DNA from: Caldilineaceae bacterium
GTDB lineage: Bacteria; Chloroflexota; Anaerolineae; Caldilineales; Caldilineaceae
Length of the DNA stretch: 64,000 nt
Direction of reading: 5' to 3'
Assembly (NCBI GenBank): GCA_965220715.1
Contig: CBDCQZ010000002.1
Span: 9,332-73,331 of the forward strand
Shown here: piece after piece, positions 46,213-64,000 of the stretch
Position numbering within the stretch: the stretch's first letter is position 1
How the letters are laid out: each line of letters begins with the position of its first letter
Translations under genes and position numbers: made by a program
The notes under the pieces: model-generated
Seen by the model: only the letters and a program-made list of their open reading frames with translations
Databases searched by the model: none
Told to the model about the DNA's origin: nothing

Positions 46213-46215
46213 ATG

Positions 46216-47520: not shown

Positions 47521-47630
47521 GTAACGTCTGCTAGCAACACGATCAGTACCGTCTCCCCGCGTTTCATTCCGACACCGGCCCCGCTGCCAAGTCCTCGGCT
47601 ATCTCCTCACAACCTTCAGTGTATAACGCT

Positions 47631-50600
47631 CTAACCTAACCGTAACTCCTCCGACACTTCAGAGAGCAACTCGTTTATCCTCTCCACCTTTGCCGCATCG
47701 GGCCTTGTTTCGCCGCCAAATTGAATCCGCACTTTGAACACGATTGGATCTCCGACGGCCGCTTCGAGAATCCTCGGCACCAGTTCTGCCAGGTCCTGTA
47801 TCCCGTGGCCTTCCAACGTTGCCTCGGCCGCCGGCATCCCCGCCTGGTAGTCGGCCGGGAGTTCCCGGAGCCCGACAAAACTGGCCGTCGGCGTCTGCAG
47901 CAGGACACTTCGAGCGCCAGATCGGTCAGTATCCAAGGGCGCGCTCCCTTCAGCCAATTCCAGCCACTGCGCGCGGATCGCTTCGGCTATCGCGGTCCTG
48001 GCCGTACTCCAAGGCAGACTGACCCCTCGTTTGCTTGACAGTGCGGTCACGATTGCCAAGGCGCTGGTCCCGCTGTCCGTCCAGGCATCGGGAATTTCCT
48101 CGGCCATCAGTTCACTGACAGCAATCGGCTCCGGCGGAGGACGGAGGACAGCTGTGGGACCGAGAACGCCCGCGGGAACCGGTTCGCCCAGCATCGAGGC
48201 AGGCCCGTTCGTCATCCATATCAGGCCCTCGGCTACCGCCTGCGAGATAGCCTCATCAACCTGGGACGGCTCACAGGCGGGAATGAAAAACGTGTCCTCG
48301 TACCCTCCCATCGGCACTTGTACGGCGCGTCCGCCCGCGAAGTAGTCATGTACGGACTGGACGCTGATCTCGTCGGTCGGCCAAAGGTCGGGAAGCGCCC
48401 GGTATGCGAGCAACGCCGGATTAAGGTCGCTAAGCTTGGCGGCCTCCGGCAGCCAGACTTCCAGGCTCGTATCACTCAACACGGTATCATCGACCCGCGT
48501 GCGCCAATAGGTCTTTCCCGTTTTGTCAGGCCGCACCGTGCGCCCCACCCAGATTCCCGCTTCGATCCCCTGTACAATCGTATCCAGAATCTCCCTGTGG
48601 CGCAGCATCTTGGGCAGTTTGGCATTCTGGGCGAAGGCCCCCACCAAGACTCTGACACGACGTGCGGTTTCATCCTCTCGCCACAGGTCATAGGGGCCGC
48701 CCGGCATCATCGCTTCAGCACTGATGGCGGTCTCCTGGATGCGGGCGCGTCGATCGGCTTTGATGGTTATGAAGAGTGGGTCGCCGGTCAGCGCGATTCT
48801 GAAGGCATGGATCTCATTGGCCTCATTGACGGTGACAACGATCGAATAGGCCTGCCTGATGGCTTCGGGGATGCGACCGCCGGCCGCCCGCGTCTCCGAG
48901 GCCAGCAACTCTTCGCGGATGGGATCGATCGGCTGATCCTTGAGCTGCTCACCGACCTCCTGCCAGCCGAGATGCTCCCGAATGCGCGTGCGCGCGGCCT
49001 CAAGTCCGTCCCTGGAAGGAACAGCCAGCACGATTGCATTGCGATTGACGCGGGGGCGGTCCGCCGCCGTCGTCTCGTTGATAAAGCGTTTGGCCTCCGC
49101 GCTCGGTTTGCCCGACTCCGAACCGGCCTGCGGGCCAAGGATGGCAAAATGAAACTCGCCATCGTCCTGAACATCCCTGGGCGACCGCGGCAGCGTGTGG
49201 ACTCGGGCGCCCGCCGCGGACGCTCCCCCTGTCAGCGACTTCTCTTTCCCTATCGCCTCAATGAGTTGCGATTCGATCAACTGGGGAGGAACCCGGTTGC
49301 GGCAGGCGTCGTCGTGCATCTGACGCAAATTGGGGCGGTTGCCTAGCCGCCACGCTTTCGGCAGTTGCGGCATACCGTCACGGCCAGTGGTTTCCCCCGA
49401 TCCAAACTCAGCTTCGTCCAGAAACCAAGAAAGCTCAGTCCAGCGGTGCAACGCCTTCTCCAACTCGATCTTGTCAGGCTTTGTCGCGCCGAGCAGCGTC
49501 ATCAACTCGCGCGTCTGCGCCTTCTGGCCGATCGGCTGGGAGCTGAGGAAGACTGAAATGACGGCCTGCTCTATTTCGCGCTGGTTCAGGCCGCTTGCTT
49601 GGGCCTGGATCCCGCGCGCTTTGTCCAGTTCGCCCTCGATGATCGGCCGCCACTCCTGGTGGCCGCCGGCGCCGGCCTCGACGCTGGCGACAGAGGCCAA
49701 CTCGCTGGCCGCTTCGGCCAAGTCCGCCGCGTCCGGCCCACCCAGAAAAACGTTTGGCCCGACCAGAGGGTTGGTGTCCCACTTCTCTGCGTCGCGCAGC
49801 GCGATGGCAAAGGTGCGCAGGATGCCGCGCGTACGCTGGAAACCTGGCAACTGGGTCCAGCGGGTGTAGAAAATCTCGGTGACATCGGGGTGAAACGGAT
49901 AGCTTCTGAGGTATCGCTCCTCGGCCGCCTGCCGCCCCTTTTTTGTCTGTTCATCGAGCGCCGCGACGTTGGCGACGGCCGCGGCGACGTGCGGACGGAA
50001 TCGGTCCTGTTCGCGGATCGACTCCGGCTTGAAAAAGCGCCGCCGCAGGACCTCGGATACATCCTCCTTGCTCACCGGGCTGGCGTCCTCCTCGGTCTGA
50101 CGGCCGAAGACCTCGGACACCTGGCGCAGGATCTCGTTCCCCAACTCATCGTGTTTGCCGGGGTCGGAGGCGAGCAGCGAGGCAACCATGGCGCAGCGGT
50201 CCACCTTGACGACCGCCTGCGTGAGGTACTGGAAAAAGGCGACCATGCGCCCGCGCGCCGCTTGATCGGTCTCGACCTGCGCGCGCAGGTACATCAGCGC
50301 TTCGTCCAGAAGCACGAGCGTAGCAAGCTCCTCCTCCTGAGGCTTCGACAGTAGCCGGACGATCAAGGGTTCGGCCGGCGGCGTGTCGCGCTCCTCGTCC
50401 TTGCCTTCGGCGTGGATCATTCTCAGCCCGTCGGCCCCGGCCAGTTGGTAGGCAAGAACGCTCCAGGGATGCTTGAGCATCCTGATCGACCCGTCCGGCG
50501 CCGACGTCTCGACGCCCAGCTCCAGGTCGATCTTGTCAAAGCACAGGGCGGCGACGCGGGCGCGGGGCATTGGGCCGCCGCTATGCGCTTCAAACTCGGC

Positions 50601-50942
50601 TACAGTTTGCAACTCCGGCAAGGTGGACAGGTCCTGCACCAGGTGCCACAGCGTGATCAGCGTGTGGGTCTTGCCCCCGCCGTAGGTGACCGATAGCGAG
50701 CGATAGGCCTTGTCGCTGCGGCCGGCCAGACGCTGGGCCACATCGCGCACCAGATCACGCAGATTCAGGGTTGGGAAGGTCAGGGCAAAAAACTCGGCCG
50801 GATCCTCGTAGACCTTGCGCTGCCCCTTCTGCAAGATAACGTCGTACAGATCAGCGGCGAAGACGGCCAACGACAGCTTGCCGCTCTTGAGATCGTCGCG
50901 CAGGCTGACGACCTCGTGCCAGGGTGTCCAGGAAAGCTTCAT
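47631..50942 (-). CDS. DUF499-family ATPase
   Basis: MKLSWTPWHEVVSLRDDLKSGKLSLAVFAADLYDV...YGGGKTHTLITLWHL. I prefer the start at 50942 because the 86-codon upstream extension in the track has no family-like sequence. Confidence 0.7.
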   Translation of the reverse strand: MKLSWTPWHEVVSLRDDLKSGKLSLAVFAADLYDVILQKGQRKVYEDPAEFFALTFPTLNLRDLVRDVAQRLAGRSDKAYRSLSVTYGGGKTHTLITLWHLVQDLSTLPELQTVAEFEAHSGGPMPRARVAALCFDKIDLELGVETSAPDGSIRMLKHPWSVLAYQLAGADGLRMIHAEGKDEERDTPPAEPLIVRLLSKPQEEELATLVLLDEALMYLRAQVETDQAARGRMVAFFQYLTQAVVKVDRCAMVASLLASDPGKHDELGNEILRQVSEVFGRQTEEDASPVSKEDVSEVLRRRFFKPESIREQDRFRPHVAAAVANVAALDEQTKKGRQAAEERYLRSYPFHPDVTEIFYTRWTQLPGFQRTRGILRTFAIALRDAEKWDTNPLVGPNVFLGGPDAADLAEAASELASVASVEAGAGGHQEWRPIIEGELDKARGIQAQASGLNQREIEQAVISVFLSSQPIGQKAQTRELMTLLGATKPDKIELEKALHRWTELSWFLDEAEFGSGETTGRDGMPQLPKAWRLGNRPNLRQMHDDACRNRVPPQLIESQLIEAIGKEKSLTGGASAAGARVHTLPRSPRDVQDDGEFHFAILGPQAGSESGKPSAEAKRFINETTAADRPRVNRNAIVLAVPSRDGLEAARTRIREHLGWQEVGEQLKDQPIDPIREELLASETRAAGGRIPEAIRQAYSIVVTVNEANEIHAFRIALTGDPLFITIKADRRARIQETAISAEAMMPGGPYDLWREDETARRVRVLVGAFAQNAKLPKMLRHREILDTIVQGIEAGIWVGRTVRPDKTGKTYWRTRVDDTVLSDTSLEVWLPEAAKLSDLNPALLAYRALPDLWPTDEISVQSVHDYFAGGRAVQVPMGGYEDTFFIPACEPSQVDEAISQAVAEGLIWMTNGPASMLGEPVPAGVLGPTAVLRPPPEPIAVSELMAEEIPDAWTDSGTSALAIVTALSSKRGVSLPWSTARTAIAEAIRAQWLELAEGSAPLDTDRSGARSVLLQTPTASFVGLRELPADYQAGMPAAEATLEGHGIQDLAELVPRILEAAVGDPIVFKVRIQFGGETRPDAAKVERINELLSEVSEELRLG

Positions 50943-51016
50943 AGTCCTCTTGTCCTTGTTGTGCTGAATGGCATTCTCGCCTGCCGTTTTCCAGGATATG
51001 GTTCCAGCATCGACTC

Positions 51017-51667
51017 TCAGGTCAACGCCCGCAGCTTCTCCCGAAAGTACTGGAAACTGGGAGAGGCGTTCTTTTCCACGTCCATCAGTGGGGGGATTTT
51101 CGTCGCCCATACTGACTTCTCCCTGCCCACCGCTCGCCATCCCCTTCTCACCAACGCTTTTGAACCGCCCGCGAACACAGCGTCCGCCAAGAACTCCCAT
51201 GTACCGCAGATCGAGTCATTGGTGTAACTGTTCAAGACAGCGTCCCTGGCCTGCGGATATGCCGCCTTGATCGCGGGCATGTCGCCGAGCAGCCAGGCTT
51301 CGCCTTCTTCGATTGCAATACAGAAGCGGGTGCTCGGTTTGGGGTTACACGCATGGAAAACTGCGAGGAGTTCCTGGCGAAATGTTTTCAGACATCTGTC
51401 GTCCAGGTCGCAGACCACAACCAACACTGCCGGATAGTTGACGGGGTAATTGGCGAATGTCTGACCATACCCCCTGAGCAACCTGGGTAGCCGGTCGAGC
51501 AAAATGCGTTGATCGGCATTCGTCTTCGGTGTGAGATTTTGGGGAATGCGGCCGATTCCTCTGTAACCAACTACTCTGAATGTATCTTGCGCACAGATGA
51601 TCTTCGGGATCAAAATGTCGAGCGCCTTCTTGCCGGACAGATCTTCGACAAGGATCTCAAAGTGCAT
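51017..51667 (-). CDS. DUF4276-family protein (TOPRIM-like partner of the ATPase), intact copy
   Basis: MHFEILVEDLSGKKALDILIPKI...VVVCDLD...CIAIEEGEAWLLGD. The start at 51667 is 4 nt after the ATPase stop. The 313-aa track ORF is an artefactual extension. Confidence 0.6.
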   Translation of the reverse strand: MHFEILVEDLSGKKALDILIPKIICAQDTFRVVGYRGIGRIPQNLTPKTNADQRILLDRLPRLLRGYGQTFANYPVNYPAVLVVVCDLDDRCLKTFRQELLAVFHACNPKPSTRFCIAIEEGEAWLLGDMPAIKAAYPQARDAVLNSYTNDSICGTWEFLADAVFAGGSKALVRRGWRAVGREKSVWATKIPPLMDVEKNASPSFQYFREKLRALT

Positions 51668-51671
51668 CCGC

Positions 51672-52952
51672 TCACCTCGCGTCCAGATAGTCGCTATACC
51701 AGAGACCGCCCAGCGGCAACCCCTCCCCGACCAGATTCCTGACAAGAGGATCGTCGCTCGCCCGCCGGATGGTCGAAAAACCGTCCGTCCCCTTCTCCAA
51801 AATCCAGACCTCTTGCGGGTCGAGCGCATCCACAAGATAAGGCTGATGCGTCGTGACGAAGACCTGCGAACCGCCCCCGGGTCCGCTGGCGTATTCGCGG
51901 AGCTCATCGGCCAGCGTCTCCAGCAGATTGTGATACAAACCGTTCTCAGGCTCCTCAATGCAGAGGAACGGAGGCGGGGTCGGGTCTTCGAGCAGCAACA
52001 GATAGGCGAAGACCTTCAGCGTCCCGTCCGACATCTGCTGGGCATAGAAGGGATCCGCAAAACCTTTGTCGTTGAATCTGAGCAGCAGGCGCCCATCACT
52101 GGTCTTCTCGGTATCGATCCGGTCAATGCCGGGTATCTTCTCGGCAATGCCTTTAAGGATCATCTCAAAACGCTGCGGATGCTCGCGCTCCATGAACTGG
52201 ACGACGTTGCCGAGGTTGTCGCCATAGATGTTGAGATGCGGTTGGGGACCGGCCAGCGGCAGGCCGCGCGCCGCGTCCGGCGTGAAGTAGCTGAGATGCC
52301 ATCCCGCGATGAAGCGGCGGAAAGCCGAAATGCGCGGGTGCTGTTTCAAGGCGCCGAGCGTGGCAATGCCGAGCCTGCGCCGGTCCTCCAATTCGATGAT
52401 CTCCATCTCGCTCGATTCCTCCGCCATGTCCAACGCGACCAGCGCCTCAAAGTCGAGTTTCTCCTCGCTTGGGTCGATTACATACCCTTTCTCTTCTCCG
52501 GTGAATACAAAACCTCTGCCGCCACTGAGAATCAGAAATACAGCTGGGCGCTCGTAGCTCACTCCTTTCGGCCTCTGCCTGAGCTCTTCTCGCAACACAT
52601 GAGGACGTCCGAACTCGTCCACATCAATCGCCACCTCGTAGGTGATCGGCCGGGCGTTCGCATCTTCCTTGTAATGCACTTCAAATTCAATCGGCCCGGT
52701 TTCTCCCTGCGACCGTATCCTCTCGAAACCGCCGCGACCGCGTGCATCGCAGGCCGCTTCCACGCCGGAGTTCAGGGCATCGAACAGGAACCCGAACGCG
52801 TCGAACAGGGCGCTCTTGCCAACGCCGTTCTTGCCGATGACCGCCGTCAAATCTGTGAGCGGCTGATCTTCGCGTTGATTCCACAGGCGGCCCAGGGTCA
52901 AATCCTTGAGCACCTTGAAATTCCTTACTCTGAACCCCTGAATCTTGGCCAT
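51672..52952 (-). CDS. ABC/SMC-like AAA ATPase (AAA_15/21-like), intact copy
   Basis: FRVRNFKVLKDLTL...AVIGKNGVGKSALFDAFGFL, FLCIEEPENGLYHNLL, VTTHQP. Confidence 0.8.
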   Translation of the reverse strand: MAKIQGFRVRNFKVLKDLTLGRLWNQREDQPLTDLTAVIGKNGVGKSALFDAFGFLFDALNSGVEAACDARGRGGFERIRSQGETGPIEFEVHYKEDANARPITYEVAIDVDEFGRPHVLREELRQRPKGVSYERPAVFLILSGGRGFVFTGEEKGYVIDPSEEKLDFEALVALDMAEESSEMEIIELEDRRRLGIATLGALKQHPRISAFRRFIAGWHLSYFTPDAARGLPLAGPQPHLNIYGDNLGNVVQFMEREHPQRFEMILKGIAEKIPGIDRIDTEKTSDGRLLLRFNDKGFADPFYAQQMSDGTLKVFAYLLLLEDPTPPPFLCIEEPENGLYHNLLETLADELREYASGPGGGSQVFVTTHQPYLVDALDPQEVWILEKGTDGFSTIRRASDDPLVRNLVGEGLPLGGLWYSDYLDAR

Positions 52953-53178
52953 TTTGCAGTCCTCATTTGCTATGCAATAGGACAGGGATCACATCGCATC
53001 TGCTGTGAACGCTCAGTCGTCATGCCAGGGTGTCCACGAACGTTTCGTTACTCATCGTGACCGCTTTGCATGCAACTGAATCTTCTGTAGCAGCCTGGGT
53101 GCGCAAAGCCATTAGGATCCGGGGTCTATCCGATAGCGATGCACAATATAGGGGCTATTCCCGCTTACGTCCCTGGCC

Positions 53179-53715
53179 CTACTCTAGTGTTCTCATCGGG
53201 CTGCTTTGGGGGATGACAGGCGGCAACAGAGGCGCATCATCATTGCCCTGCATTCGCCGTATCTTCTCGGCCATCTCGACAAAATGGTCATAGCTGCCAA
53301 AACGATACGTTGTCGGTTCGTCTTTCGATATTCGTCTCCACTTGTCTTTTCCGACCTCCGTTCGATAGGTTACAGGACCACTCGCCGATACCACTTCCAC
53401 GATGCCCAGCCTGATAAAATCGAAGACCAGCTCGGCAACGAACTCAGGCGTCATGCTTCCGTGACGGTAGCCGCCCGACCTTTTGGCAATTTGGGTATGC
53501 GATGCCGGAAACTTTCTGCCGCCGCACGCGTCTGCCATCTCCGCCATACACGTAAGCAACATCCGATATTGCGGGTACATCAAATCGATCAATCCGCTCC
53601 CTTCCAACTCCTCGGTTACGTTCTCAAAGCTGTGTTCACCCATCCGTCCCCTCTTGCTCATGCTATATCTGTTGTCTTCTTGCTGGACTGCTTCGGTACT
53701 CCAAAACCAGAGCAC
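53179..53715 (-). CDS. hypothetical protein, possible wHTH
   Basis: ORF only. TQIAKRSGG...EFVAELVFDFIRLGIVEVV looks like a winged helix. The real start may be the internal MSKRGRMG at 53661. Confidence 0.35.
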   Translation of the reverse strand: MLWFWSTEAVQQEDNRYSMSKRGRMGEHSFENVTEELEGSGLIDLMYPQYRMLLTCMAEMADACGGRKFPASHTQIAKRSGGYRHGSMTPEFVAELVFDFIRLGIVEVVSASGPVTYRTEVGKDKWRRISKDEPTTYRFGSYDHFVEMAEKIRRMQGNDDAPLLPPVIPQSSPMRTLE

Positions 53716-53973
53716 AGATTGCGGATCTCAGAATGACACTGAACCAATTCCATGCCTATTCAATTGGGATTTATATACTTGACTCAGCAAAGCGGGTTTG
53801 ACAAACTTGGCGAAGTGTGCGATACTTGAGTTCACCATAGCGATTGTACAATTTTGTAGTCAATAAGTAGTTGTAGAACGAGTGGGCGCGTTGCGCCCCC
53901 TTGTTGGCTACAAAAATAATGGAATCGCTATGGTGGCATCCATTCATTCTACAACCACCAAGGGGGTTCCATC

Positions 53974-54384
53974 GTGCGGAAACAATTACTCATTCTTGCG
54001 TTTGTAGCGATACTCGTTGCATTCAGTGTATCACAAGTGCTTGCTCAAAGTGAACTTACACTTGAAAGTCTAGCAGAACAGGTAACGTCACTGCTTCAAC
54101 GAGTAGAAGCACTTGAATCTCTATGGGATGGGCCAGGGTCTATTGCTTTAGATGATGGCGGTTGCGTAGTCGCAACAGGCGAATTGCAGAGAGAAACCGC
54201 CATTAAGTATTACGATCAGTTTGAAGAGTTCCCGGATCGCATTAGGATCAAGACGGTAGCCATTCAACCAGAAGAAAATAAGATAGCGATTCTTTACACT
54301 GACCTTTGGGAAAATGAATGGGCTTGGGAATATTGGACTGATTGTGAGTTTGTAGGTAGCTCTGATTGGGAAAGAGATGAGTAG
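53974..54384 (+). CDS. small secreted protein (signal peptide), passenger ORF
   Basis: MRKQLLILAFVAILVAFSVSQVLAQ signal-like N-terminus with GGGGG/AAGGGGG upstream. Confidence 0.5.
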   Translation: MRKQLLILAFVAILVAFSVSQVLAQSELTLESLAEQVTSLLQRVEALESLWDGPGSIALDDGGCVVATGELQRETAIKYYDQFEEFPDRIRIKTVAIQPEENKIAILYTDLWENEWAWEYWTDCEFVGSSDWERDE

Positions 54385-54413
54385 TCAAAACAGAATACAT
54401 CGAGGAGGGTAAA

Positions 54414-54911
54414 ATGTTGAAATTCCTTGGCGTAATCGGGTTGGCTATTGTAGCACTAGGTCTTGTGGGCGTTATCTGTTCATCATCCAGTACGGCGGGG
54501 GTATCACGAGCAGAAACAACGCCCACACCCGCTTTAACATGGGAGCAGTGGCAAGAGAAAGCAGTAGAAATTTCCTATAACGATCTGTTCCGTTACGCTG
54601 AGACGCATGAAGGAGAAATCGTCTTCTATCGTGGCAAGGTCATTCAAGTCATTGAAGATGAAGGCGATTTCCAACTACGCGCCAATGTGACCAAAAACGA
54701 ATACGGTTGGAGCGATACCGTATTCCTCCGTTACAGAGATGCGCCAGTCCGCATACTGGAAGACGACATTGTTGCTTTCGTTGGGAGGATGAATGGCACT
54801 CTAACGTATGAAGCAGTGATGGGGAACAAGGTGACAATCCCCGACATTACAGTTCATATCCTACTCGTCAAAGATGAAAATAGTAAAGATGTCCCGTCAT
54901 TTGACTGGTAA
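54414..54911 (+). CDS. small membrane-anchored protein, passenger ORF
   Basis: GAGGAGGG RBS. MLKFLGVIGLAIVALGLVGVICSS TM segment. Confidence 0.5.
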   Translation: MLKFLGVIGLAIVALGLVGVICSSSSTAGVSRAETTPTPALTWEQWQEKAVEISYNDLFRYAETHEGEIVFYRGKVIQVIEDEGDFQLRANVTKNEYGWSDTVFLRYRDAPVRILEDDIVAFVGRMNGTLTYEAVMGNKVTIPDITVHILLVKDENSKDVPSFDW

Positions 54912-55048
54912 AGGAGAAACTATCATGGCAGAACAAGCGGGAGAGTCCAACAACAAAGTCGATATGGACATTATACATGCTGCCATCGACAAGGTGCTCG
55001 CCTACGGTCCAAGTCGGAAACAACGCAAGCCACGAAAGGGGATAGGTA

Positions 55049-55270
55049 ATGGCCCTGCCAAAGAGAAGACCAGAAAGCGGTCTGCCCGACGACCTGCTGG
55101 CCCTTCCAACTCTGTTCGCTGAATTTAGGAAGGAAATGAATCAGCGTCTAGGCAATATCGAAAACCGCCTAGAAAATATAGAGAGTGATTTGGCTAATGT
55201 CGATGGTAAGGTGGAAACAGTTAGTCTACGTCTTACCGAGATTGAGAAGAAGCTGCCCGTCTCTTACTGA
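55049..55270 (+). CDS. small coiled-coil ORF (uncertain; overlaps the alternative ORF 54926-55122 in another frame)
   Basis: ORF only, with a heptad pattern NIENRLENIESDLANVDGKVETVSLRLTEIEKKL. Confidence 0.3.
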   Translation: MALPKRRPESGLPDDLLALPTLFAEFRKEMNQRLGNIENRLENIESDLANVDGKVETVSLRLTEIEKKLPVSY

Positions 55271-56295
55271 TTAACAACGCCACCAGTTTCATTGCTGGTG
55301 GCGTTGTTTTGCCTTTCCTTTGCAATCAGTTCCTCGTAGGTTAGTCGTTTTCCGATTGCGCCTTCAATGATATGGTTCAGTCTAACCATCGTGTGATTTT
55401 TCACATTGCCTTCGTTCAGTCTGAACACGAATTCGTTTACGTACCGTCTCATATGTTTCTTGCTCCAGTGGTGATACACTCCGTTGTAGCCCCGCTTTAG
55501 CACCGCCCAAACGCTTTCGATTCCGTTTGTGTGCGCCATGTGGTTGACGAACTCTTTGGCGCTGTGCTTGACTGATTCGTGCCGGTAGAGTTCCTCTAGG
55601 CCCGTGTATGCGCCGTGTTCGTCCGTGTAGAGCGTTGCGCCCTGCTCGACAGTGTTCAGAACTTCTGTCTGAATCGTCTTGGAGCCGGTATCGTCAATCG
55701 GCTTGGCCGTTACCCGGCCCTCTCGCTCTCGCATCCCCAACACCGCCTGCTTGCCTACCGTGCCGCGCCCGGCGTTCAGTTTCTTTGATTCGTGCTTGTT
55801 GGATTCCTTACCGCCAATGTAGGTCTCGTCAATTTCGACCTCGCCATCCATGCGAACTGCTTCAATATCGCACGCTTCGCGCAGGCGATGAAGGAGAAAC
55901 CAAGAAGATTTTTGTGTAATGCCCAATTCCTTCGATAGCTGTAAGCTACTGATCCCTTTACGTGCTGTCTGAAGTAGATACATGGCATACATCCACTTAT
56001 GTAGAGGTATATGAGAACGTTCAAAGATTGTGCCAGTGCGGACCGTGAACTGCTTACGACAAGCGTTACACTGATGATATTGTGGCCTCTTGCTAAGGCG
56101 ATTCGTTTCTTCGCTATCACAATAAGCGCAGCGAACGCCATCAGGCCAACGTCTATTCTCTATACAATCAATGGCAGCCTGCTCGTCCGGGAACTGCTGA
56201 AAGAATTCGTAAGTGCTAATTGTGCCACCGTATTTATTGCTAGTCATAGTTGCGCCCTTTTCACTGAATCGTTTACGATAAATACAGTATAGCAC
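55264..56295 (-). CDS. IS1595-family (ISXO2-like) transposase
   Basis: N-terminal zinc ribbon CAYCDSEE...HQCNACRKQFTVRTGTIFE, HTH LQLSKELGITQKS, and EIDETYIGGKE of the DDE domain. The probable start is MTSNKYGG at 56247. Confidence 0.85.
   Translation of the reverse strand: MLYCIYRKRFSEKGATMTSNKYGGTISTYEFFQQFPDEQAAIDCIENRRWPDGVRCAYCDSEETNRLSKRPQYHQCNACRKQFTVRTGTIFERSHIPLHKWMYAMYLLQTARKGISSLQLSKELGITQKSSWFLLHRLREACDIEAVRMDGEVEIDETYIGGKESNKHESKKLNAGRGTVGKQAVLGMREREGRVTAKPIDDTGSKTIQTEVLNTVEQGATLYTDEHGAYTGLEELYRHESVKHSAKEFVNHMAHTNGIESVWAVLKRGYNGVYHHWSKKHMRRYVNEFVFRLNEGNVKNHTMVRLNHIIEGAIGKRLTYEELIAKERQNNATSNETGGVVNQ
55273..55308. terminator. 14-bp perfect stem-loop (AACAACGCCACCAG-N8-CTGGTGGCGTTGTT) between convergent genes
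   Basis: Read directly. It is followed by TT on the plus strand and preceded by the complement of TTAA. It overlaps the last codons of the transposase ORF. Confidence 0.6.
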
Positions 56296-56347
56296 AACTT
56301 GGCTGCTGAGTCAAGTATATAATTCCCATTCAATTATCTGTTCACGG

Positions 56348-57514
56348 TCAGCGTCCGAAGTCGAACTGTTTGCGGATATTTTCCCATGAGTTCATACAAT
56401 CCTCTTTCAAGTCTTCCCCCAATTCATTCTCCAATTTTACCCACGATCCTTCATGCTCACGCTCCAGATATGCCATCAACTTGTTCTTCAATTTTTTTTG
56501 TTCCTCCTTCTGCTCACTTGTCAAACCTCCATCAATATACTGACGACAACCCAGTTCCTCTTTCCTAAAAGAATGCTGCAATTTTATTGCAAACTTATCC
56601 CACAATTCATTATATTTCTTCAGTGAATAATTCCAGCTATATTCCAATTCTCTTAAAAGCAATTGTGTTCTTGCAACTCTGCAGTCGTCGTATGCGTTGT
56701 AAAACTGCGGATTATACTCAGTCGTTTTTTCGTACCACTCTATTGCACGTTTGAAATTTGCTTGCTGGTGAAAACTCTTACCCAAAGAATAAAGTCTCTC
56801 CGTCGTGAGCAAATATGGTCTATTGTGCGAATTGTAGCGGGCAAACCCGTCGAGATCGTTAAAAAGAGATTGTTCTCCGATACCAAACGATTTTTTCAAT
56901 GTCTCTCTGATGTTCCCCTTTTTATTTACTTCTATCTCAATTTCTTTGTAATCAACATTCCACTTTTCTATTCTTCCTTTTCCAAATAAGAAAGTGGATT
57001 GTTGAGAGACAATGCGATTGTTAATACTATCGGGCTTCCATTTCCACAATTTTCCCTGATCAATGAATGATTCAATTGGCTTGTCAATATCCTCATAGGA
57101 TATGGTAAAGAAATCAGTGGTATCACCTGTTTCCACCGCGACAACTTTTCCATCATAGCTGGGACATTCATAGCATGCGAACCAAAGAGCAATCATGGCA
57201 TTCTCGCTAAAATCAATCAGGCAGGTTGCCGCGCCATAATGTTGCAATTCTGCCAGCATCTCTAAATCAGAGAGGTTCTTGCTCTGCCTCTCCCGAAAGC
57301 CACGTAAGCTTGCATCATTCAATAATTCAACAGTATAGCCATGAATCATAGAGTCACTCGTGAACAATGATTCATTTTCCGATTTTTCTATTCTCCGATA
57401 CGCTGATGACGACACATCCCAGTTTGCCTTAGCCAGACCGCGATAGAGCATTATCTCGCCTTGCAAATCTTCTGTCCACTTAATAAATTCTTCGACGGAT
57501 CTTATTCTGTTCAT
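56348..57514 (-). CDS. FRG-domain protein with a TPR-like/helical C-terminal half
   Basis: GGGAGGGG RBS with ATG at 57514. MLYRGLAKANWDVSSSAYRR...LAELQHYGAATCLIDFSENAMIALWFAC matches the FRG pattern. AT-rich. Confidence 0.65.
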   Translation of the reverse strand: MNRIRSVEEFIKWTEDLQGEIMLYRGLAKANWDVSSSAYRRIEKSENESLFTSDSMIHGYTVELLNDASLRGFRERQSKNLSDLEMLAELQHYGAATCLIDFSENAMIALWFACYECPSYDGKVVAVETGDTTDFFTISYEDIDKPIESFIDQGKLWKWKPDSINNRIVSQQSTFLFGKGRIEKWNVDYKEIEIEVNKKGNIRETLKKSFGIGEQSLFNDLDGFARYNSHNRPYLLTTERLYSLGKSFHQQANFKRAIEWYEKTTEYNPQFYNAYDDCRVARTQLLLRELEYSWNYSLKKYNELWDKFAIKLQHSFRKEELGCRQYIDGGLTSEQKEEQKKLKNKLMAYLEREHEGSWVKLENELGEDLKEDCMNSWENIRKQFDFGR

Positions 57515-57639
57515 TTGTCCCCTCCCTTTACATTGTACATCGTACTTCGCTTGCAAAGCGGTCAACGCAACCCGCCATGCCCTCTGTAAGTCGTCACCGC
57601 TTAATCAAAGACGCCCCCTGCGTCTTAACCAGAACCGAC

Positions 57640-57843
57640 AAATCCGGCTTCTCACCCCAACATGTATGCGCACAGACATTTCTGTCTGTGCCGCCTGCAG
57701 AGTGATTTTGCCTCTGCCCATTGCGACCAACTCCTTGATATGCAGTCACATTGAAAAGTATCTTGCGCGCCGAAGATCTTCGGTATCAAAATGTCGAGCG
57801 CCTTCTCGCCGGTCGGATCTTCGACGAGGATTTCAAAATGCAT
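57640..57843 (-). pseudogene. degenerate 5-prime remnant of a DUF4276 gene (copy B)
   Basis: MHFEILVEDPTGEKALDILIPKIFGAQDTF, then homology to copy A decays with indels. Confidence 0.7.
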
Positions 57844-58486
57844 CCGATCGCCTCGCGTCCAGATAGTCGCTGTACCAGAGACCGCCCAGCGGCAGCCCCT
57901 CCCCGACCAGATTCCTGACGAGAGGATCGCCGCTCGCCCGGCGGATGGTCGAAAAGCCGTCCGCCTCCTTTTCCAGAATCCAGATCTCCTGCGGGTTGAG
58001 CGCATCCACGAAGTAGGGCTGATACGTCGTGACGAAGACCTGCGAACCGCCTCCGGGCCCGCTGGCGTGTTCGCGGAACTCGTCGGCCAGCGTCTCCAGC
58101 AGCTTGTGATACAAACCGTTCTCAGGCTCTTCAATGCAGAGAAACGGAGGAGGCGTCGGGTCTTCGAGCAGCAACAGATAGGCGAAGACCTTCAGCGTCC
58201 CGTCCGACATCTTCTGGGCATAGAAGGGGTCTTCAAAGCCTCTGTCGTTGAAACGGAGCAGCAGGCGGCCGTCACTTGTCTTTTCCGTGTCGATCCGGTC
58301 AATGCCGGGTATCTTCTCGGCGATACCCTTAAGAATCGCCCTAAAGCGCTGCGGATGCTCACGCTCCATGAACTGAACGACATTGCCGAGGTTGTCGCCG
58401 TGGATGTTGAGATGCGGTTGGGGACCGGCCAGCGGCAGGCCGCGCGCCGCGTCCGGCGTGAAATCGCTGAGTATGGTTGGCCCCAA
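57833..58486 (-). pseudogene. C-terminal half of the ABC-like ATPase (copy B), 5-prime truncated at the IS3 insertion
   Basis: FTPDAARGLPLAGPQPHLNIHGDNLGNVVQFMEREHPQRF...FLCIEEPENGLYHKLL parallels residues roughly 215-426 of copy A. The stop codon is mutated (TGA to CGA). Confidence 0.85.
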
Positions 58487-58521
58487 TCGTTAGACCACAA
58501 AATGGGGAAAATAAGGTGCAT

Positions 58522-59181
58522 TTAGGCGAATGCGGCCGGCTCTGAACAGAGCACGAAGTGCTCTTCCGCCGGTGTGCGATAGTTGAGACTTTGATGTGGT
58601 CTCTCATGGTTGTAGAAGTCGAAATAGGCGGTCAGCCCAGCGTGCAGCTGAGGTACCGTGTTATACTGGTTGAGATAGATGTCCTCATATTTGACGCTGC
58701 GCCATAGGCGTTCGCAGAAGACGTTGTCGAGGGCGCGGTCGCGCCCATCCATGCTGACTTGTATGTTGGCCGCGAGCAGGCAGGCGGTGAAGGCATCGGC
58801 CGGGAACTGCGCGCCTTGGTCGGTGTTGAAGAGCTTGGGTCGACCCTTGACGAGCGCCTGACGCAGGGCATCGAGACAGAAGCTACCGTCCAAGGTGTTG
58901 GAAAGCTGCCAGGCGAGCACAAAGCGGCTGTGCCAGTCGATGACAGCGACCAGGTACATGAAGCCACGCAGCAGCAGCATATAGGTGATGTCTGCACTCC
59001 AGACCTTGTTGACATGCGTAATCGGGAAGTTGCGCAAAAGGTACGGATAGCGCTTGTGCCCTTTGCCCGGAGAACTGCTGCTTCTCCTGGGGTAGATGGC
59101 TTGAATGCCCATCAGACGCATCAGCCGCCTGACCCGCTTGGCGTTGACAGCATAGCCCAGGCGACGCAGATACGCGGTCAT
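58522..59181 (-). CDS. IS3 transposase orfB portion (DDE integrase core)
   Basis: WSADITYM..., NTDQGAQF, ERLWRSVKYEDIYL...FYNHERPHQSL. Confidence 0.85.
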   Translation of the reverse strand: MTAYLRRLGYAVNAKRVRRLMRLMGIQAIYPRRSSSSPGKGHKRYPYLLRNFPITHVNKVWSADITYMLLLRGFMYLVAVIDWHSRFVLAWQLSNTLDGSFCLDALRQALVKGRPKLFNTDQGAQFPADAFTACLLAANIQVSMDGRDRALDNVFCERLWRSVKYEDIYLNQYNTVPQLHAGLTAYFDFYNHERPHQSLNYRTPAEEHFVLCSEPAAFA

Positions 59182-59221
59182 CTTGGGCCAACCATAGAAG
59201 GGCGTACGCAGAAATTGCTCG

Positions 59222-59680
59222 TCAATGTCGGCAGACCGACCGCTTTGCGAACAGCCGCATCAGGTCCAAGTTCAATGCCGACTCGGAAGCCGCTTGATAG
59301 TAGAAAGAGGCCCGATTAAGCCCCAGCAGTTGGCACTGCCGCCGTACACTCAGGGTCGCATGCTGGCTATCAACCATACCCCGTCTCTCACGAACCGAAG
59401 CGGGCAACTTTTTCTTCAGCCACTCAAGTTCCATCTTGAGCCGCCCGATCTGTTCATAGAGTTCTGCTTCCTGCGCCTCCTGCTCCCGTTGCTTGCGCTC
59501 GCCATTGCTGACGAAAACGCTGGGCCCGTCTTCAAGAAGTTGCCGTTTCCAAGCCCATATCATGTTGGGATGAATCTCGTGTTCACTGGACAACTGGCTC
59601 ATCGTCTTGCTGCCTTCAAGCGCTTCGAGCGCAATCCGAAACTTGTAGGCCGCCGAGTGTCGCCGCCGTTTCTTGACCAT
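59222..59680 (-). CDS. IS3 transposase orfA (HTH plus leucine zipper), reading through into the start of the orfB region
   Basis: MVKKRRRHSAAYKFRIALEAL...EIHPNMIWAWKRQL, LKMELEWLKKK. It continues in frame through VRRQCQLLGLNRASFYY. A 25-nt stretch then breaks the frame before IDEQFLRTPFYGWPKMTAYL. Confidence 0.8.
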   Translation of the reverse strand: MVKKRRRHSAAYKFRIALEALEGSKTMSQLSSEHEIHPNMIWAWKRQLLEDGPSVFVSNGERKQREQEAQEAELYEQIGRLKMELEWLKKKLPASVRERRGMVDSQHATLSVRRQCQLLGLNRASFYYQAASESALNLDLMRLFAKRSVCRH

Positions 59681-59772
59681 CGTTCTGCCCCTCCACAGGC
59701 CTGGTGAATTGCTCCATTATACACCTTCGCTTGTGGTCCAGTTTTTGGGGCCAAGCTCAAGGAGCCAAAACC

Positions 59773-60921
59773 TTGAAGAAGAAATATAAGTTCCCTCACT
59801 TTCGCTTGTTCATACTTGGGGCAGGATTTTCGAAGCCGGCGGGACTGCCACTCGGATGTAGACTATTCGAGAGTGTTCGCCATGAGATTGGGTGTCAGTC
59901 TCAAGTTCTTGAAAGGGAAATCGAAGAGTGGACAAAACTATATCCGCTAGAGAAGCTAGACCTAGAACGTGTATTGGCTTACAGCCACGGCCGACACTAT
60001 CTTCGCCTCAAAGGGCCAAAGGAGTATTACGCCGACGGAAGCGAAAGTATTGTTGCGGCGAGAAAGGCCATTCAGCAGGTCTTGATCAAATCCACACCGT
60101 CTTGCACACCATCTCTGTACCAAAGGTTTTCCAAGCATCTATCACCCAATGATGTTGTCTTAACCTTTAACTATGACACACTCCTGGAGCAATCGCTTGA
60201 CTCCATCAGCAAGCCATACTCTCTTACCCCTGAATGGTGGCTAAGTCGAGAATTGACTGAGTCGGGTTTTGAATATGTCGATCTGCTGAAACTTCATGGG
60301 TCAATTGATTGGTACGATCGAAAACACTACGATGACTCAGTTCGTTGGTTACGGGAAAATTCTACTTGCAATGTGACAGATAGGGATCCGATTTTTGGAC
60401 CCGCCCCATTGGTTCAACCAGTACCCCTTAACAAAGGTGAGACCGATACCGATTTGGGACAGAGGATCTTGCCGAGAGTTTTCCGCGTTCCAAATCATTT
60501 GGAGTTCTTCCCATTGGATAGCCATGGATATCCTTTCAATAGAGTAGTGCCTTTTATGCTCCCTCTTTCCCATAACAAGCTGCTTGGACATGATCCTATA
60601 CTTGACCTTTGGAAAAACCTTGATTACGTCGGAAACGAACTTACTTCGATTGTAATTATTGGGTATTCTATTCCTCAGTATGATAGCTATGCATATGAGA
60701 CAATCGGGCATCTCTGTCAACGGTATCAGTCGGGCGGCAGAAGGACTGGGTACGGCAATAGGCGAGTTCCGATTCAGATCATAACTTTGGCGGAATCGAC
60801 AACATCTGTCCTTAAGAGTTTACCTTTCTTGGACTCCTCTCGAACCCTAATTTGGCTCAAGGGATTCTCCAATGACTCTCTTGATTGGCTGGACTGGGGA
60901 GATGAAGATTTTACAGAGTAA
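59773..60921 (+). CDS. stand-alone SIR2-like (SIR2_2) domain protein, about 382 aa
   Basis: AAGGAG at 59759-59764 with TTG at 59773. FILGAGFSKPAGLPLG, VLTFNYDTLLEQSL, LLKLHGSIDWY. AT-richer. Confidence 0.7.
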   Translation: MKKKYKFPHFRLFILGAGFSKPAGLPLGCRLFESVRHEIGCQSQVLEREIEEWTKLYPLEKLDLERVLAYSHGRHYLRLKGPKEYYADGSESIVAARKAIQQVLIKSTPSCTPSLYQRFSKHLSPNDVVLTFNYDTLLEQSLDSISKPYSLTPEWWLSRELTESGFEYVDLLKLHGSIDWYDRKHYDDSVRWLRENSTCNVTDRDPIFGPAPLVQPVPLNKGETDTDLGQRILPRVFRVPNHLEFFPLDSHGYPFNRVVPFMLPLSHNKLLGHDPILDLWKNLDYVGNELTSIVIIGYSIPQYDSYAYETIGHLCQRYQSGGRRTGYGNRRVPIQIITLAESTTSVLKSLPFLDSSRTLIWLKGFSNDSLDWLDWGDEDFTE

Positions 60922-61007
60922 AAGTGCTTCATTTTATCGAGAAATTCCATTGACATGACCGATCACTGATCCGTTCAACTTCGACGAGGATTTCAAAGTG
61001 CATCCGC

Positions 61008-61526
61008 TCACCTCGCGTCAAGATAGTCGCTGTACCAGAGGCCGCCCAGCGGCAACCCCTCCTCGACCAGATTTTTCACCAGAGGATCGTCGCTGGCCCG
61101 GCGGATGCTCGAAAAGCCGTCCGCCTCCTTTTCCAGAATCCAGATCTCCTGCGGGTTGAGCGCATCCACGAAGTAGGGCTGATGCGTCGTGACGAAGACC
61201 TGCGAACCGCCTCCGGACCCGCTGGCGTGTTCGCGGAACTCGTCGGCCAGCGTCTCCAGCAGCTTGTGATACAAACCGTTCTCAGGCTCTTCAATGCAGA
61301 GAAACGGAGGAGGAGGGTCTTCGAGCAGCAACAGATAGGCGAAGACCTTCAGCGTCCCGTCCGACATCTTCTGGGCATAGAAGGGGGCTTTGCCGACGCC
61401 GTTCTTACCGATGACTGCCGTCATGTCGGTGAGTGGCTGGTTTTTCTGTTGATTCCAAAGGCAGCCCAGGGTCACATCCCTGAGCACCTTGAAATTCCTT
61501 ACTCTGAACCCCTGAATCTTGGCCAT
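61008..61526 (-). pseudogene. internally deleted ABC-like ATPase (copy C): the Walker A segment is joined directly to the C-terminal third
   Basis: MAKIQGFRVRNFKVLRDVTL...AVIGKNGVGK | APFYAQKMSDGTLKVF...FLCIEEPENGLYHKLL. About 250 codons are missing relative to copy A. It is followed by an 8-codon DUF4276 stub (MHFEILVE, 60980-61003). Confidence 0.8.
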
Positions 61527-61723
61527 TTTGCAGTCCTCATTTGCTATGCGGCAGGACAGGGATCACATCTCATGCGCACTTGTTACGAATCCCATTTGAC
61601 ATCAAGACTTTCCAACCTACTGGGGCGCAGGCGTCTCGCTTTCCCCTATCCAATACGGAATACTCAATTCACGAAGGAGAAGTAGCGGATCTTCGATGTG
61701 AACGCTCAGTCGTCATGCCAGAT

Positions 61724-64000
61724 TTATCCAAGTGCAAATCGGCCCTGGCGCGACGGGCTGACATTGCCTCGGGTCTTAATATGGTTGCTGAGGGACTCCA
61801 GGAGCGAGCGCTCTTCGGAGCCGGCCTCGGCCAGTTCGATCAGCGCCTGCAGGATCTGGGCGAAGAGAGCGTTGCGTGGCAGGCCGCGTTCGTCGAGGTA
61901 ACTGTTCACCTTGCCTTGATCGCCGCCGCGCCAAAGCTGCATCAGCTTATGCACCTGGTCGATCAGCGGCACAGGCCGCCCGCCCGCCCCCTGCAGACCT
62001 AGATTGCGGCCCGTGCGCCGGTTCCAGGGCTTGAGCTTGACCTTGGCACCACCGCCGCTGCCGGATTCGTCCTCTTCCCCGCTATTTTCTTCATCCTCTT
62101 CGTTGCGGCCCCGCCCCTGCGCCAACAGGTCGTGCTGTTTCACCAGGGTGGCGTCGGAGAGGTTGCAGGAAAGGGCGTAGAGGATACAGCCGCCGACCGG
62201 CGCTTCGGCCATGCCGAAATCGTGCCGGTGCAGCAGGTAGTATGTGGTGACGTCGTCCAATCCGGTCACTGTCTCTTCGCCGTCCTGGGTCAGCACGCGG
62301 CCTACGACGAAATCGACGACCATGCGCCGCACCTCGCGCAGGAACTCAGAGACGCTCATCAGCTGATTGGGATCGTTGGCCTTCTTGACGACCGGGTACT
62401 TGCTGAACGCCTCCAGCGCCGGCCCAGTCGCCGCCCACACGAAGTCCGGCCCGCGAATGCCGGCGTCCCAGAAGTCGCGCAGTTGCTTGGTAATGTTTTC
62501 CCGCATTTCCTGCAGTACGCTACTGTCCCAGCCGGGGCGTGGACTCTGGCGCTTCCGACAGACCAACCATATGGACGATGCAAGTGAAGAGCGGCCATAG
62601 TTACGAACTCCACCGCGCATTTCCGTAGCAATTGGCCAACTTGCATTTACAGCGAAACCTGCACGAATTATGGCTGATACAAGTGTCTCCCAAGCATCCG
62701 GTTGCTTGTTGGCAAAAACTACAACGAGGTATCCTTCCTTTGCTAGTGCTAACCCGCAGGCATTGAACGCCCGGAACATTCCATCTTCATAGTTAATCTT
62801 CGATTTTTTCCTGTCTCCATCGAAACGTGACGAATCATCGATCAATTCACCATCGTGATCGATACTGCTCCATTTGGGTCCTAGCAGATCCTTGAATGAT
62901 TTGTCGATTTCCGGTGAAATGCCATGTAATGTACGGCGCAGCCAAACGTAGAAGAAGTCCATCAAGTCAGAGTAAGGTATTGCATCGTAGTACGGAGGAT
63001 CGGTAACAACCAAGTCATGCTCTTCAACCGGCACGATTGCGCTCTGGCACAACACTCTTGGTGAGTCACAATCCTGGGAGACAGCAGTTCCCAAGGAATC
63101 AAGGACCCTGCTAACATTCGTGACTCCGCCCGCAAAAAACCTGTCCACCGTGGCAAGCGGGTTTCCTTCAGCGAAATCCCAAGTAATCGGCAGCGCAAAA
63201 CGCAAAAAGGTCTGTTTAACTTCGGATGCAACCGACTCCCATAAACAAAGGGTACTCAAATAATTGATCGCTCTGTCCAGGCAAACTGAAAGCATCAAGG
63301 TCGTTGCAATTGCCCAATCGGATTCATCTTGAAGGGCACTAACGGTTCGGATACTTCTGATAGGCCCAATGAGGGCTCCGATTGCTAAGAGTTGCCGATT
63401 CGTAAACAGCTTACGCCAAGTGTCGAAGCCATAGTTGTATACACCAGAAAACTGGGTCTTGGTCGGGGTCGGTTCTTCCGGCAGCCCGAACGGAATGTCG
63501 GCGTACAACGCCTGCAACTGCTCCTCTGTCACTTCCGCCGCTGACAGCTCATGCTCCGTCGGCAGGCGGTACTCCTTGCCCTTCGGCCCGTTGACGACAA
63601 CGGCGGTCATAACCGCGCCCAACCGCCCCGCCCGCCCCTCCAGGCGGATATCCTGCATGGTCATGATGACGCCGCAGCAGGGGCAGGTTGCGCCGGTGCG
63701 CGACATGGTGCCGCCGCCGATGCGTTTATCGTGTTCCCGCCGCTGCGCCGCGTTGCCGCCGACGCGCGGGACGTCGGCCTCAACCCCGAAGACGACGCCT
63801 GTGCGCCCGGCATCCGGCTCCATCGTCAGCAGGACGCGCTTGCGCTCCTTCTTGCACAGCCAGCGCGTCTTGAGCAGGGCCAGCATGGCGCGGCACTGCT
63901 TGCAGGTCACGATACGCGCCCACAGATAGGCCACGGTCGGCTTGGCGATCCAGCGGGGATTGCGCGGGTCACGCAGATAGGTTTCGTTATACCCGGCGTT
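61724..64000 (-). CDS. DUF1156-family DNA methyltransferase (5-prime end lies beyond the window)
   Basis: AYLWARIVTCKQCRAMLALLKTRWL (DUF1156 zinc-ribbon region). VVTDPPYYDAIPYSDLMDFFYVWL (motif IV, DPPY). The reading frame stays open to position 64000. Confidence 0.75.
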   Translation of the reverse strand, partial: NAGYNETYLRDPRNPRWIAKPTVAYLWARIVTCKQCRAMLALLKTRWLCKKERKRVLLTMEPDAGRTGVVFGVEADVPRVGGNAAQRREHDKRIGGGTMSRTGATCPCCGVIMTMQDIRLEGRAGRLGAVMTAVVVNGPKGKEYRLPTEHELSAAEVTEEQLQALYADIPFGLPEEPTPTKTQFSGVYNYGFDTWRKLFTNRQLLAIGALIGPIRSIRTVSALQDESDWAIATTLMLSVCLDRAINYLSTLCLWESVASEVKQTFLRFALPITWDFAEGNPLATVDRFFAGGVTNVSRVLDSLGTAVSQDCDSPRVLCQSAIVPVEEHDLVVTDPPYYDAIPYSDLMDFFYVWLRRTLHGISPEIDKSFKDLLGPKWSSIDHDGELIDDSSRFDGDRKKSKINYEDGMFRAFNACGLALAKEGYLVVVFANKQPDAWETLVSAIIRAGFAVNASWPIATEMRGGVRNYGRSSLASSIWLVCRKRQSPRPGWDSSVLQEMRENITKQLRDFWDAGIRGPDFVWAATGPALEAFSKYPVVKKANDPNQLMSVSEFLREVRRMVVDFVVGRVLTQDGEETVTGLDDVTTYYLLHRHDFGMAEAPVGGCILYALSCNLSDATLVKQHDLLAQGRGRNEEDEENSGEEDESGSGGGAKVKLKPWNRRTGRNLGLQGAGGRPVPLIDQVHKLMQLWRGGDQGKVNSYLDERGLPRNALFAQILQALIELAEAGSEERSLLESLSNHIKTRGNVSPSRQGRFALG

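Follow-up and report, generated by a model that had tools for sequence, protein, structure and literature searches.

Hma defence operons often carry additional genes: embedded genes were found in 62.7% of Hma systems and, among these "Hma-embedded candidates" (HEC), HEC-01 pairs an ABC ATPase with a TOPRIM-like protein (Payne et al., bioRxiv 10.1101/2024.01.29.577857). Hma has been renamed a Type-1 DUF499-centred BREX-related (BR) system; at least 1242 taxa have OLD-type ABC/TOPRIM modules within their BREX and BR loci, and in 594 taxa the ATPase is paired with alternative nucleases (PMC12839542). How do such modules arrive, and what becomes of them? The survey of Hma set aside loci in which over three embedded genes separate hma genes, and the arrival and decay of cassettes were outside its scope (bioRxiv 10.1101/2024.01.29.577857). 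Here we describe a 64,000-nucleotide (nt) stretch of a Caldilineaceae (Chloroflexota) genome (contig CBDCQZ010000002.1, positions 9,332-73,331; hereafter the window) with an Hma operon in which the gap between hmaB and hmaC has probably been widened to 10.8 kb by stacked embedded cassettes: one intact HEC-01 pair and the relics of two others.

The locus is not a new kind of system: its genes belong to known families, and the embedding of OLD-type ABC-ATPase/TOPRIM modules in Hma operons has already been published. A DUF1156 methylase (HmaB) and a DUF499 ATPase (HmaC), recognized by PADLOC, Pfam and NCBIfam models, are encoded on one strand, in operon order, as in described Hma/Type-1 BR systems, which also comprise a helicase-nuclease. 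Between them, profile searches and self-BLAST of the window reveal the intact pair (copy A) and two relics (copies B and C), all on the minus strand (Table 1). The pair conforms to HEC-01 of PADLOC-DB v2, in which two genes, for an ABC ATPase and a DUF4276 protein, lie between hma genes on the strand of the operon, and both models match over their full length; this locus differs in that, beside the intact copy, it has two relics in which an FRG-TPR gene or a SIR2 gene took the place of the TOPRIM gene. Unlike in the described systems, the hmaB-hmaC gap contains two insertion sequence (IS) elements and a convergent gene over its 10.8 kb, so co-transcription of hmaB and hmaC is doubtful; a scan of the array for promoters and terminators gave counts no higher than in shuffled sequence. 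The hmaB stop codon occupies 61724-61726, and the hmaB frame, open to position 64000, aligns with residues 295-1059 of HmaB from the related contig L081. A scan of one genome per species gave 80 related loci, the closest of which are in Caldilineaceae metagenome-assembled genomes, many from sponges.

A preliminary description of this stretch had counted three ATPase-DUF4276 copies, one intact and two decayed, while allowing that they might prove unrelated beyond short motifs. Pairwise alignments show 90-95% DNA identity over hundreds of nucleotides. Copy A (51017-52952) is intact, with open reading frames (ORFs) of 426 and 216 amino acids (aa). In self-BLAST of the window, A 51579-52295 aligns with B 57755-58471 at 90.1% over 717 nt; B 57819-58233 aligns with C 60979-61390 at 94.9% over 415 nt; and A aligns with C in two blocks, 51643-52052 with 60979-61385 (90.2%) and 52807-52999 with 61382-61573 (88.6%), separated by a gap of ~254 codons. 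As described, B and C form the closest pair, at 95% identity, and each is 90% identical to A.

The relics differ in how they decayed and in what follows them. Copy B, as reported, lacks its 5' half beside an IS3-family element and has a degenerate DUF4276; its HEC-01A portion ends at 58471 and IS3 starts at 58472, the stop codon has changed from TGA to CGA and the H-loop His to Tyr. Its far end had been placed at 57640 and has to be corrected: homology to intact relatives stops at ~57722, and the sequence from there to the FRG gene is unrelated. In copy C, the ~254 missing ATPase codons were lost at a joint, GGCAAAGC followed by CCCCTTC, that lies inside Walker A, replaces the Walker A serine and has 3-4 nt of microhomology; an 8-codon DUF4276 stub remains. 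The cargo behind the decayed copies is different, as had been noted: FRG-TPR plus an IS1595 element behind B, and a full-length convergent SIR2-like gene behind C. Copy C was also considered as a chimera with an L081-like 5' part and an L165-like 3' part; this was rejected, as its 3' ATPase part is 88.8% identical to L165 and 95.1% identical to B, and only the SIR2 cassette is L165-like. Exact-protein look-ups of the copy C ORF and of two versions of the SIR2 ORF matched no contig.

The ratios of non-synonymous to synonymous divergence (dN/dS) suggest that these genes worked for most of their history. For A and B, dN/dS is 0.14-0.17 and dS 0.23-0.32; for A and C, 0.16-0.18 and 0.30-0.32; for B and C, computed on the 126 codons that they share, 0.22 and 0.10 (8 synonymous and 6 non-synonymous changes); and for A against orthologs of other species, 0.18-0.25 and 0.30-0.52. 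Because dN/dS is low, most of the divergence accumulated under purifying selection, and inactivation is recent relative to divergence. The three copies thus probably derive from no fewer than three HEC-01 genes, which diverged while still functional.

The joints between the cassettes are equally informative. The 25-mer TGTGAACGCTCAGTCGTCATGCCAG occurs exactly twice in the window, at 53004-53028 ahead of copy A and at 61697-61721 ahead of copy C, there 2 nt from the hmaB stop (0/100 shuffles matched); this identity had been correctly reported. The boundary 2 nt past the DUF1156 stop had been presented as shared between copies, with repeated acquisition or duplication at one junction, but it is not an insertion or attachment site: in six related loci (L001, L003, L004, L082, L084 and L085), the hmaB stop is directly followed by a diverged version of the 25 nt and a ~75-nt leader that extends to the HEC-01A start, so the hmaB-to-HEC-01A intergenic region natively begins with these 25 nt. 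In copy C they occupy their normal place. The leader of copy A is joined instead to a relic of the hmaC upstream region at 53029-53134 (the true hmaC start is at 50942), and copy A is therefore not at the same junction. At this joint, the hmaC relic and the leader have only CTGGCA(Y)GA in common, a 6-9 nt microhomology, and the joint is identical in three independent assemblies: the window, L081 and L162. The joint is a tandem-stacking scar: an hmaC start next to an hmaB-proximal leader is expected either from tandem duplication of a segment running from the hmaB 3' end through the cassette to the hmaC 5' end, or from single-crossover integration of such a segment in circular form. Other scars follow the same logic: in L005 and L165, the final ~16-25 nt of hmaB and the leader adjoin the 3' flank of orf178, an ORF usually found just upstream of hmaC, and in L007 an internal hmaB fragment is fused to the initial ~90 nt of hmaC.

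An origin of the 25 nt as a fragment of the hmaC 5' end was rejected, since similarity to hmaC falls to chance level past CTGGCA(Y)GA and related loci show the native leader. A consensus RNA fold of the leader yields a weak hairpin with no real covariation. In copy C, a 106-nt insert (61591-61696) directly follows the 25 nt, and the insert and leader of L081 are ~99% identical to it; L002 carries a different, GC-rich palindromic insert (9870-9935) within its 25 nt, flanked by the direct repeat CTGAGC. These leader inserts may represent a small mobile element or a hairpin-prone site.

Comparison of this junction across related strains shows that L004, L081, L162 and L165 differ from one another in gap content; because related strains differ there, the hmaB-hmaC gap is a variable exchange site. 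L004 has the order hmaB, HEC-01A, FRG (split by the same IS3 family), two orf178 copies and hmaC, colinear with B-FRG-orf178-hmaC relic of the window. L081, a long-read metagenome contig, is 99.89% identical to the window over 9.3 kb (44460-53765; hmaC 100%) and encodes identical HEC-01 proteins of copy A, but its HmaB protein shares only 75% identity with that of the window; L081 has just one relic, in which the leader and ATPase nt 1-72 are fused to a HEC-01B stub followed by FRG, and has no SIR2, IS3 or IS1595. L162, the third assembly (~93% identical), has FRG, orf178, the same hmaC'-leader joint, HEC-01, hmaC and then different genes; cassettes homologous to FRG-TPR lie behind HEC-01A in L004, L081 and L162 as well. 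L165 has a full-length HEC-01A, the same 8-codon HEC-01B stub, the same convergent SIR2 (98% at the protein level), a partly deleted IS3 and hmaC. Compared with the window in 100-nt steps, L165 is 97-100% identical in the SIR2 cassette, 81-95% in the 3' part of the ATPase, 73-96% in IS3 and ~81% in hmaC; an island of identity in divergent flanks reads as the signature of a recent cassette exchange between divergent arrays. Homologs of the SIR2-like protein are 377-388 aa long, and one of them, P0121, is 98% identical.

HEC-01B has been replaced at different breakpoints: at codon 42 by FRG-TPR, at codon 8 by SIR2 and, in L004, right after the ATPase stop. An intact or nearly intact HEC-01A without HEC-01B is found in L004, L005, L025 and L165, followed by FRG, by nothing recognizable, by hmaC directly or by the convergent SIR2; of the two genes, the one for the TOPRIM partner seems to be the more easily lost. 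The preliminary description had called the junction a cassette-exchange hotspot, and this stands insofar as the gap varies among related strains and cargo is swapped; the joints, however, are heterogeneous products of microhomology and IS elements, and neither a recombinase nor a repeated attachment site was found. Variable cargo between conserved flanks, mosaic identity, and joints that have homology at one end and microhomology at the other are familiar from defence hotspots flanked by core genes and from homology-facilitated illegitimate recombination. Unlike in those hotspots, the flanks here are two genes of one defence operon, and the embedded HEC-01A also seems to be a homology arm.

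The reading that we favour, with a probability of about 0.7, is that divergent Hma arrays were stacked and exchanged by homologous and microhomology recombination, then eroded by IS-linked and small deletions; recombination that is homologous on one side and microhomology-mediated on the other would be the driver. In this history, an array ending in orf178 and the hmaC start would first have been joined to the leader of a second HEC-01 at the 6-9 nt microhomology, a joint then fixed in the lineage. The TOPRIM gene of the upstream modules would next have been replaced by FRG-TPR (codon 42) and by the convergent SIR2 (codon 8), and a recent exchange between divergent arrays would have brought in the SIR2 cassette, with the HEC-01A 3' end and IS3 as probable homology arms. 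Three events would complete the record: an IS3-adjacent deletion that removed the 5' half of copy B, the deletion at 3-4 nt of microhomology that removed 254 codons of copy C, and a recent IS1595 insertion. Exchange would proceed by ordinary homologous recombination in hmaB, hmaC, HEC-01A, the leader and IS3, together with illegitimate joints at microhomologies, and would involve no dedicated site-specific system.

Could the copies have arisen by tandem duplication within this genome, the paralogs diverging slowly and then decaying, with no horizontal input? The hmaC 5'-leader joint is exactly what tandem duplication would produce, a neighbour-joining tree of the 410 nt shared by A, B and C groups the three weakly, and nearly identical tandem HEC-01 copies do exist elsewhere. 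In L161, an unrelated metagenome contig, two copies (3396-6270; ATPase starts 2560 nt apart) are 95.9% identical, and in L051 (223-2093), another such contig, a 190-nt HEC-01 relic is 96.8% identical to the adjacent full copy, so HEC-01 duplication is not confined to Caldilineaceae. Here, however, A is about as far from B and C as from orthologs of other species, and the L162 copy is about equally close (~93%) to all three. The flanks are mosaic as well: SIR2 is nearly identical to that of L165 while hmaC is not, and L081 is 99.9% identical on the hmaC side yet far more distant in HmaB. Taken together, dN/dS, dS and the mosaic flanks favour stacking of alleles from different lineages over recent in-situ duplication, and purely in-genome duplication is unlikely.

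A second alternative holds that the triplication is partly an assembly artefact, in which two co-existing strains, one with a SIR2 array and one with an FRG array, were joined through a common IS3. The IS3 of the window does lack a target duplication (its flanks are GAG and AGG, as opposed to the 3-bp duplication CTG of the L004 copy), IS3 fragments recur in the window, and the two halves of the array resemble separately observed arrays, one L165-like and one L081-like. Yet the copy A joint, the B'-FRG joint and the joint of C stub, SIR2 and IS3 are each present in independent assemblies. The L165 IS3 also has no target duplication: its flank on the SIR2 side is the same as in the window, while on the far side the element abuts copy B at nt 658 in the window but the hmaC upstream region in L165, a pattern that fits real IS-adjacent deletions. 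Such deletion is the simplest explanation of the IS3 flanks, with chimeric assembly as the alternative for the IS3-B joint. Even if that joint were chimeric, the population would still have three diverged HEC-01A 3' ends; we regard the artefact as very unlikely. For the IS1595 element, its 25-nt inverted repeats, 8-bp target duplication AATTGAAT and the empty sites in L004, L081 and L162 mark a recent simple insertion. Although the element spans 2.56 kb, its transposase takes up only 1 kb, and two plus-strand ORFs (53974-54384 and 54414-54911) without a Pfam match may be passengers.

The last alternative, an integron-like or other site-specific system that would place ATPase/TOPRIM cassettes at one fixed position, 2 nt beyond the hmaB stop, is barely credible: an exact 25-nt repeat does precede two copies and the leader is conserved across loci, but the 25 nt are native leader, copy A's leader adjoins an hmaC relic and not hmaB, the joints vary by locus with microhomologies of 3-9 nt, a repeat finder and comparison detect no repeat at the 3' cassette ends, and the hmaB-hmaC gap, where IS transposases are the sole recombinases (no tyrosine recombinase lies within 14 kb of hmaC), does not combine a recombinase with a repeated attachment site at cassette boundaries.

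What would the surviving module do? HEC-01A matches PADLOC PDLC04182 (4e-182) with residues 1-425 against profile positions 1-402 of 406, and HEC-01B, which begins 4 nt past the HEC-01A stop on the same strand, matches PDLC04205 (1.4e-92) with residues 1-214 against positions 1-211 of 213; full-length relatives of HEC-01A are 70-88% identical. For DUF4276, the family assigned to the second gene in the preliminary description, the outcome of the profile search was mixed: the PADLOC HEC-01B model matched strongly, and Pfam DUF4276 (PF14103) scored 24 bits, under its gathering cut-off of 30.2. Because close homologs bear a precomputed PF14103 match, HEC-01B is a divergent DUF4276 member or a relative of the family. 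Published work places DUF4276, which has a conserved Glu and a DxD motif, in the Toprim superfamily and relates it to Mad4 of MADS (PMC12065111). HEC-01B has 4556 homologs; in an alignment of 38 of them, D9, D87, D89, E120, E121 and E123 are invariant, and E4 and E8 nearly so. Its predicted secondary structure is a beta-alpha repeat with conserved E/D residues after strands 2-7 and 80-84; the TOPRIM pattern of a Glu after strand 1 and a DxD after strand 3 is present, in agreement with the published assignment. Neither a Foldseek search of the PDB with a model of pLDDT (predicted local distance difference test) 51 nor a profile search of PDB sequences gave a meaningful match. Since this model is poor and the fold searches are uninformative, the TOPRIM assignment of HEC-01B is based on the motifs and the literature.

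The preliminary description had likened this two-gene ABC-ATPase/TOPRIM-like module, set in a methylation-based defence operon, to Rlo and PARIS pairs, and the comparison is supported. PARIS (AriA/AriB) and Rlo/AbiL also combine an OLD-type ABC ATPase of the AAA_15/AAA_21 type with a TOPRIM-superfamily partner that is a protein of its own, and are located within or beside restriction systems; a plausible shared logic is that of an anti-anti-restriction back-up. By analogy with PARIS, PrrC and Rlo, HEC-01A would be the sensor of a phage cue, for example an anti-restriction protein, upon which it would free or activate the TOPRIM nuclease, so that the module would back up the methylation-based system. 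Unlike in those systems, the partner here is DUF4276 rather than DUF4435 (AriB) or RloB: HEC-01B has no AriB, DUF4435 or RloB match in PADLOC or Pfam, which separates it from PARIS, and the match of HEC-01A to AriA is to the generic AAA_21 profile. MADS, as cited in PMC12065111 from Maestri et al. 2024, pairs Mad3, an AAA ATPase, with Mad4, a DUF4276 homolog, in a methylation-associated system; matches of HEC-01A to mad3 models are weak, however, at 89 bits against an NCBIfam cut-off of 420. A HEC-01 from a cold seep reportedly protected E. coli B from one or more of the phages T4, T5 and T7 (PMC12881386).

If the ATPase outlives its partner, might FRG-TPR and SIR2 be alternative HEC-01A effectors that replace TOPRIM, with HEC-01A and its leader as a reusable docking arm in Hma/BR operons? 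An intact HEC-01A without HEC-01B does adjoin FRG in L004 and SIR2 in L165. Counting against this idea, SIR2 is convergent to the ATPase, and both cargo genes are intact beside dead ATPases in the window, which suggests that the cargo works alone; we consider effector swapping quite unlikely.

Several observations weigh against the favoured account of stacking, exchange and erosion, or against the function proposed for the module. The IS3-B joint was found in no other assembly; like the joint of the internal deletion in copy C, it is known from this window alone. The order in which the events occurred is reconstructed from the scars, and low dN/dS alone does not separate horizontal stacking from an old in-situ duplication in which both copies were long retained. 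The HmaA helicase-nuclease falls beyond the window, although Helicase_C and NOV_C genes precede hmaB in the sister contig L081. The AlphaFold model of HEC-01B, built with 38 homologs, is too poor (pLDDT 51) for comparison with the three-layer alpha/beta TOPRIM fold of sheet order 2-1-3-4. HEC-01 gave no protection in E. coli K-12 assays (bioRxiv 10.1101/2024.01.29.577857), and its function is inferred, with protection in only the one later, cold-seep report.

Table 1. Features of the hmaB-hmaC region, in order of transcription from hmaB; positions refer to the window.
Feature	Positions	Strand	Evidence
hmaB (DUF1156 N6-adenine methyltransferase), 3' 765 codons, runs off the window end	61724-64000	-	PADLOC HmaB 2e-73, NCBIfam DUF1156_antiphage
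hmaB-to-HEC-01A intergenic leader of relic C, with 25-nt and 106-nt insert	61527-61723	-	sequence, conservation
relic C of HEC-01A, in-frame 172-aa ORF	61008-61526	-	self-BLAST, comparison with relatives
HEC-01B (DUF4276) 8-codon stub behind relic C	60979-61003	-	homology ends at 60979; identical joint in L165
SIR2-like cargo gene, 382 aa, TTG start, convergent to operon	59773-60921	+	Pfam SIR2_2, weak PADLOC SIR2 matches
IS3-family element (orfA 59222-59680, orfB 58522-59181)	58472-59759	-	Pfam HTH_Tnp_1, rve; ends set from four copies
relic B of HEC-01A, 3' 49% (nt 658-1281)	57848-58471	-	self-BLAST, comparison with relatives
~41 codons of HEC-01B behind relic B	57722-57843	-	same joint in L081 (95.7% identity)
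FRG + TPR cargo gene, PADLOC candidate PDC-S15 (1.1e-34)	56348-57565	-	profile search
IS1595-family element, transposase 55264-56295	53765-56328	-	repeats, Pfam, empty sites in relatives
orf178, conserved ORF, usually just upstream of hmaC	53179-53715	-	homologs in L002, L004, L005, L007, L081, L162, L165
relic of hmaC upstream region and first ~27-33 nt of hmaC (ATG 53053-53055)	53029-53134	-	homology to hmaC 5' regions of L003, L007, L165
leader of copy A, including 25-nt	52953-53028	-	sequence, comparison
HEC-01A, intact, OLD-type ABC ATPase (AAA_21), 426 aa	51672-52952	-	Pfam AAA_21 3.8e-45, PADLOC HEC-01A 4e-182
HEC-01B, intact, DUF4276/TOPRIM-like, 216 aa	51017-51667	-	PADLOC HEC-01B 1.4e-92
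hmaC (DUF499 ATPase), intact, 1103 aa	47631-50942	-	PADLOC HmaC 2e-75, Pfam DUF499

Among the remaining features of the gap, the ribosome-binding site of the SIR2-like gene abuts the end of IS3. Profile searches with Pfam, PADLOC and NCBIfam assign orf178 to no family; it is present twice in L004 and may be an unrecognized accessory gene or a regulator of the Caldilineaceae Hma clade.

Downstream of hmaC lies a block of low GC content (~50%; 42218-47520) with a large SIR2 gene (42517-46212), identified as Dsr1 by PADLOC with an E-value of 0, and a pentapeptide-repeat gene (46516-47520). Dsr1 is bracketed by IS3 fragments (42218-42499 and 46215-46284) whose order is "wrong" for a single IS; in L081, Dsr1 is split by a DDE_Tnp_1 element, and in L162 the block is replaced by other genes. 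It looks like a second variable slot after hmaC. On the other side of the operon, L081 has an AAA_21/AAA_15 protein and DUF2806 (1400-4239) between its helicase/NOV_C genes and hmaB, and L165 has a fused OLD-like ATPase-TOPRIM plus a TIR_2 gene (16851-21149) immediately upstream of hmaB. The window as a whole is a large defence island; at 27360-40857 it has a PD-(D/E)XK nuclease (27360-28301), a Piwi-domain (pAgo-like) gene (28237-30642), a tyrosine recombinase (32364-33338), an IS3 end fragment (34528-34588), a 1500-aa STAND NTPase with HEAT repeats (34755-39257) and a Schlafen/AlbA_2-HATPase_c_4-Fic-like_C protein (39451-40857). At 2119-7488, a 1789-aa ORF consists of long internal repeats (for example, 4069-5150 and 5464-6548 are 97.7% identical), and repeats with a 72-nt period are numerous.

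Published work on embedding catalogues the contents of Hma/BREX-related operons, not the arrival or turnover of cassettes, for which the sole suggestion is a "genomic sink". Annotation pipelines that allow few embedded genes will miss such expanded arrays. Together with its strain-level relatives, this locus is a readable record of turnover, with stacking joints, a shared SIR2 cassette, effector replacement, and IS-adjacent and microhomology deletions; it is of use mainly as a worked example of how embedded defence evolves.

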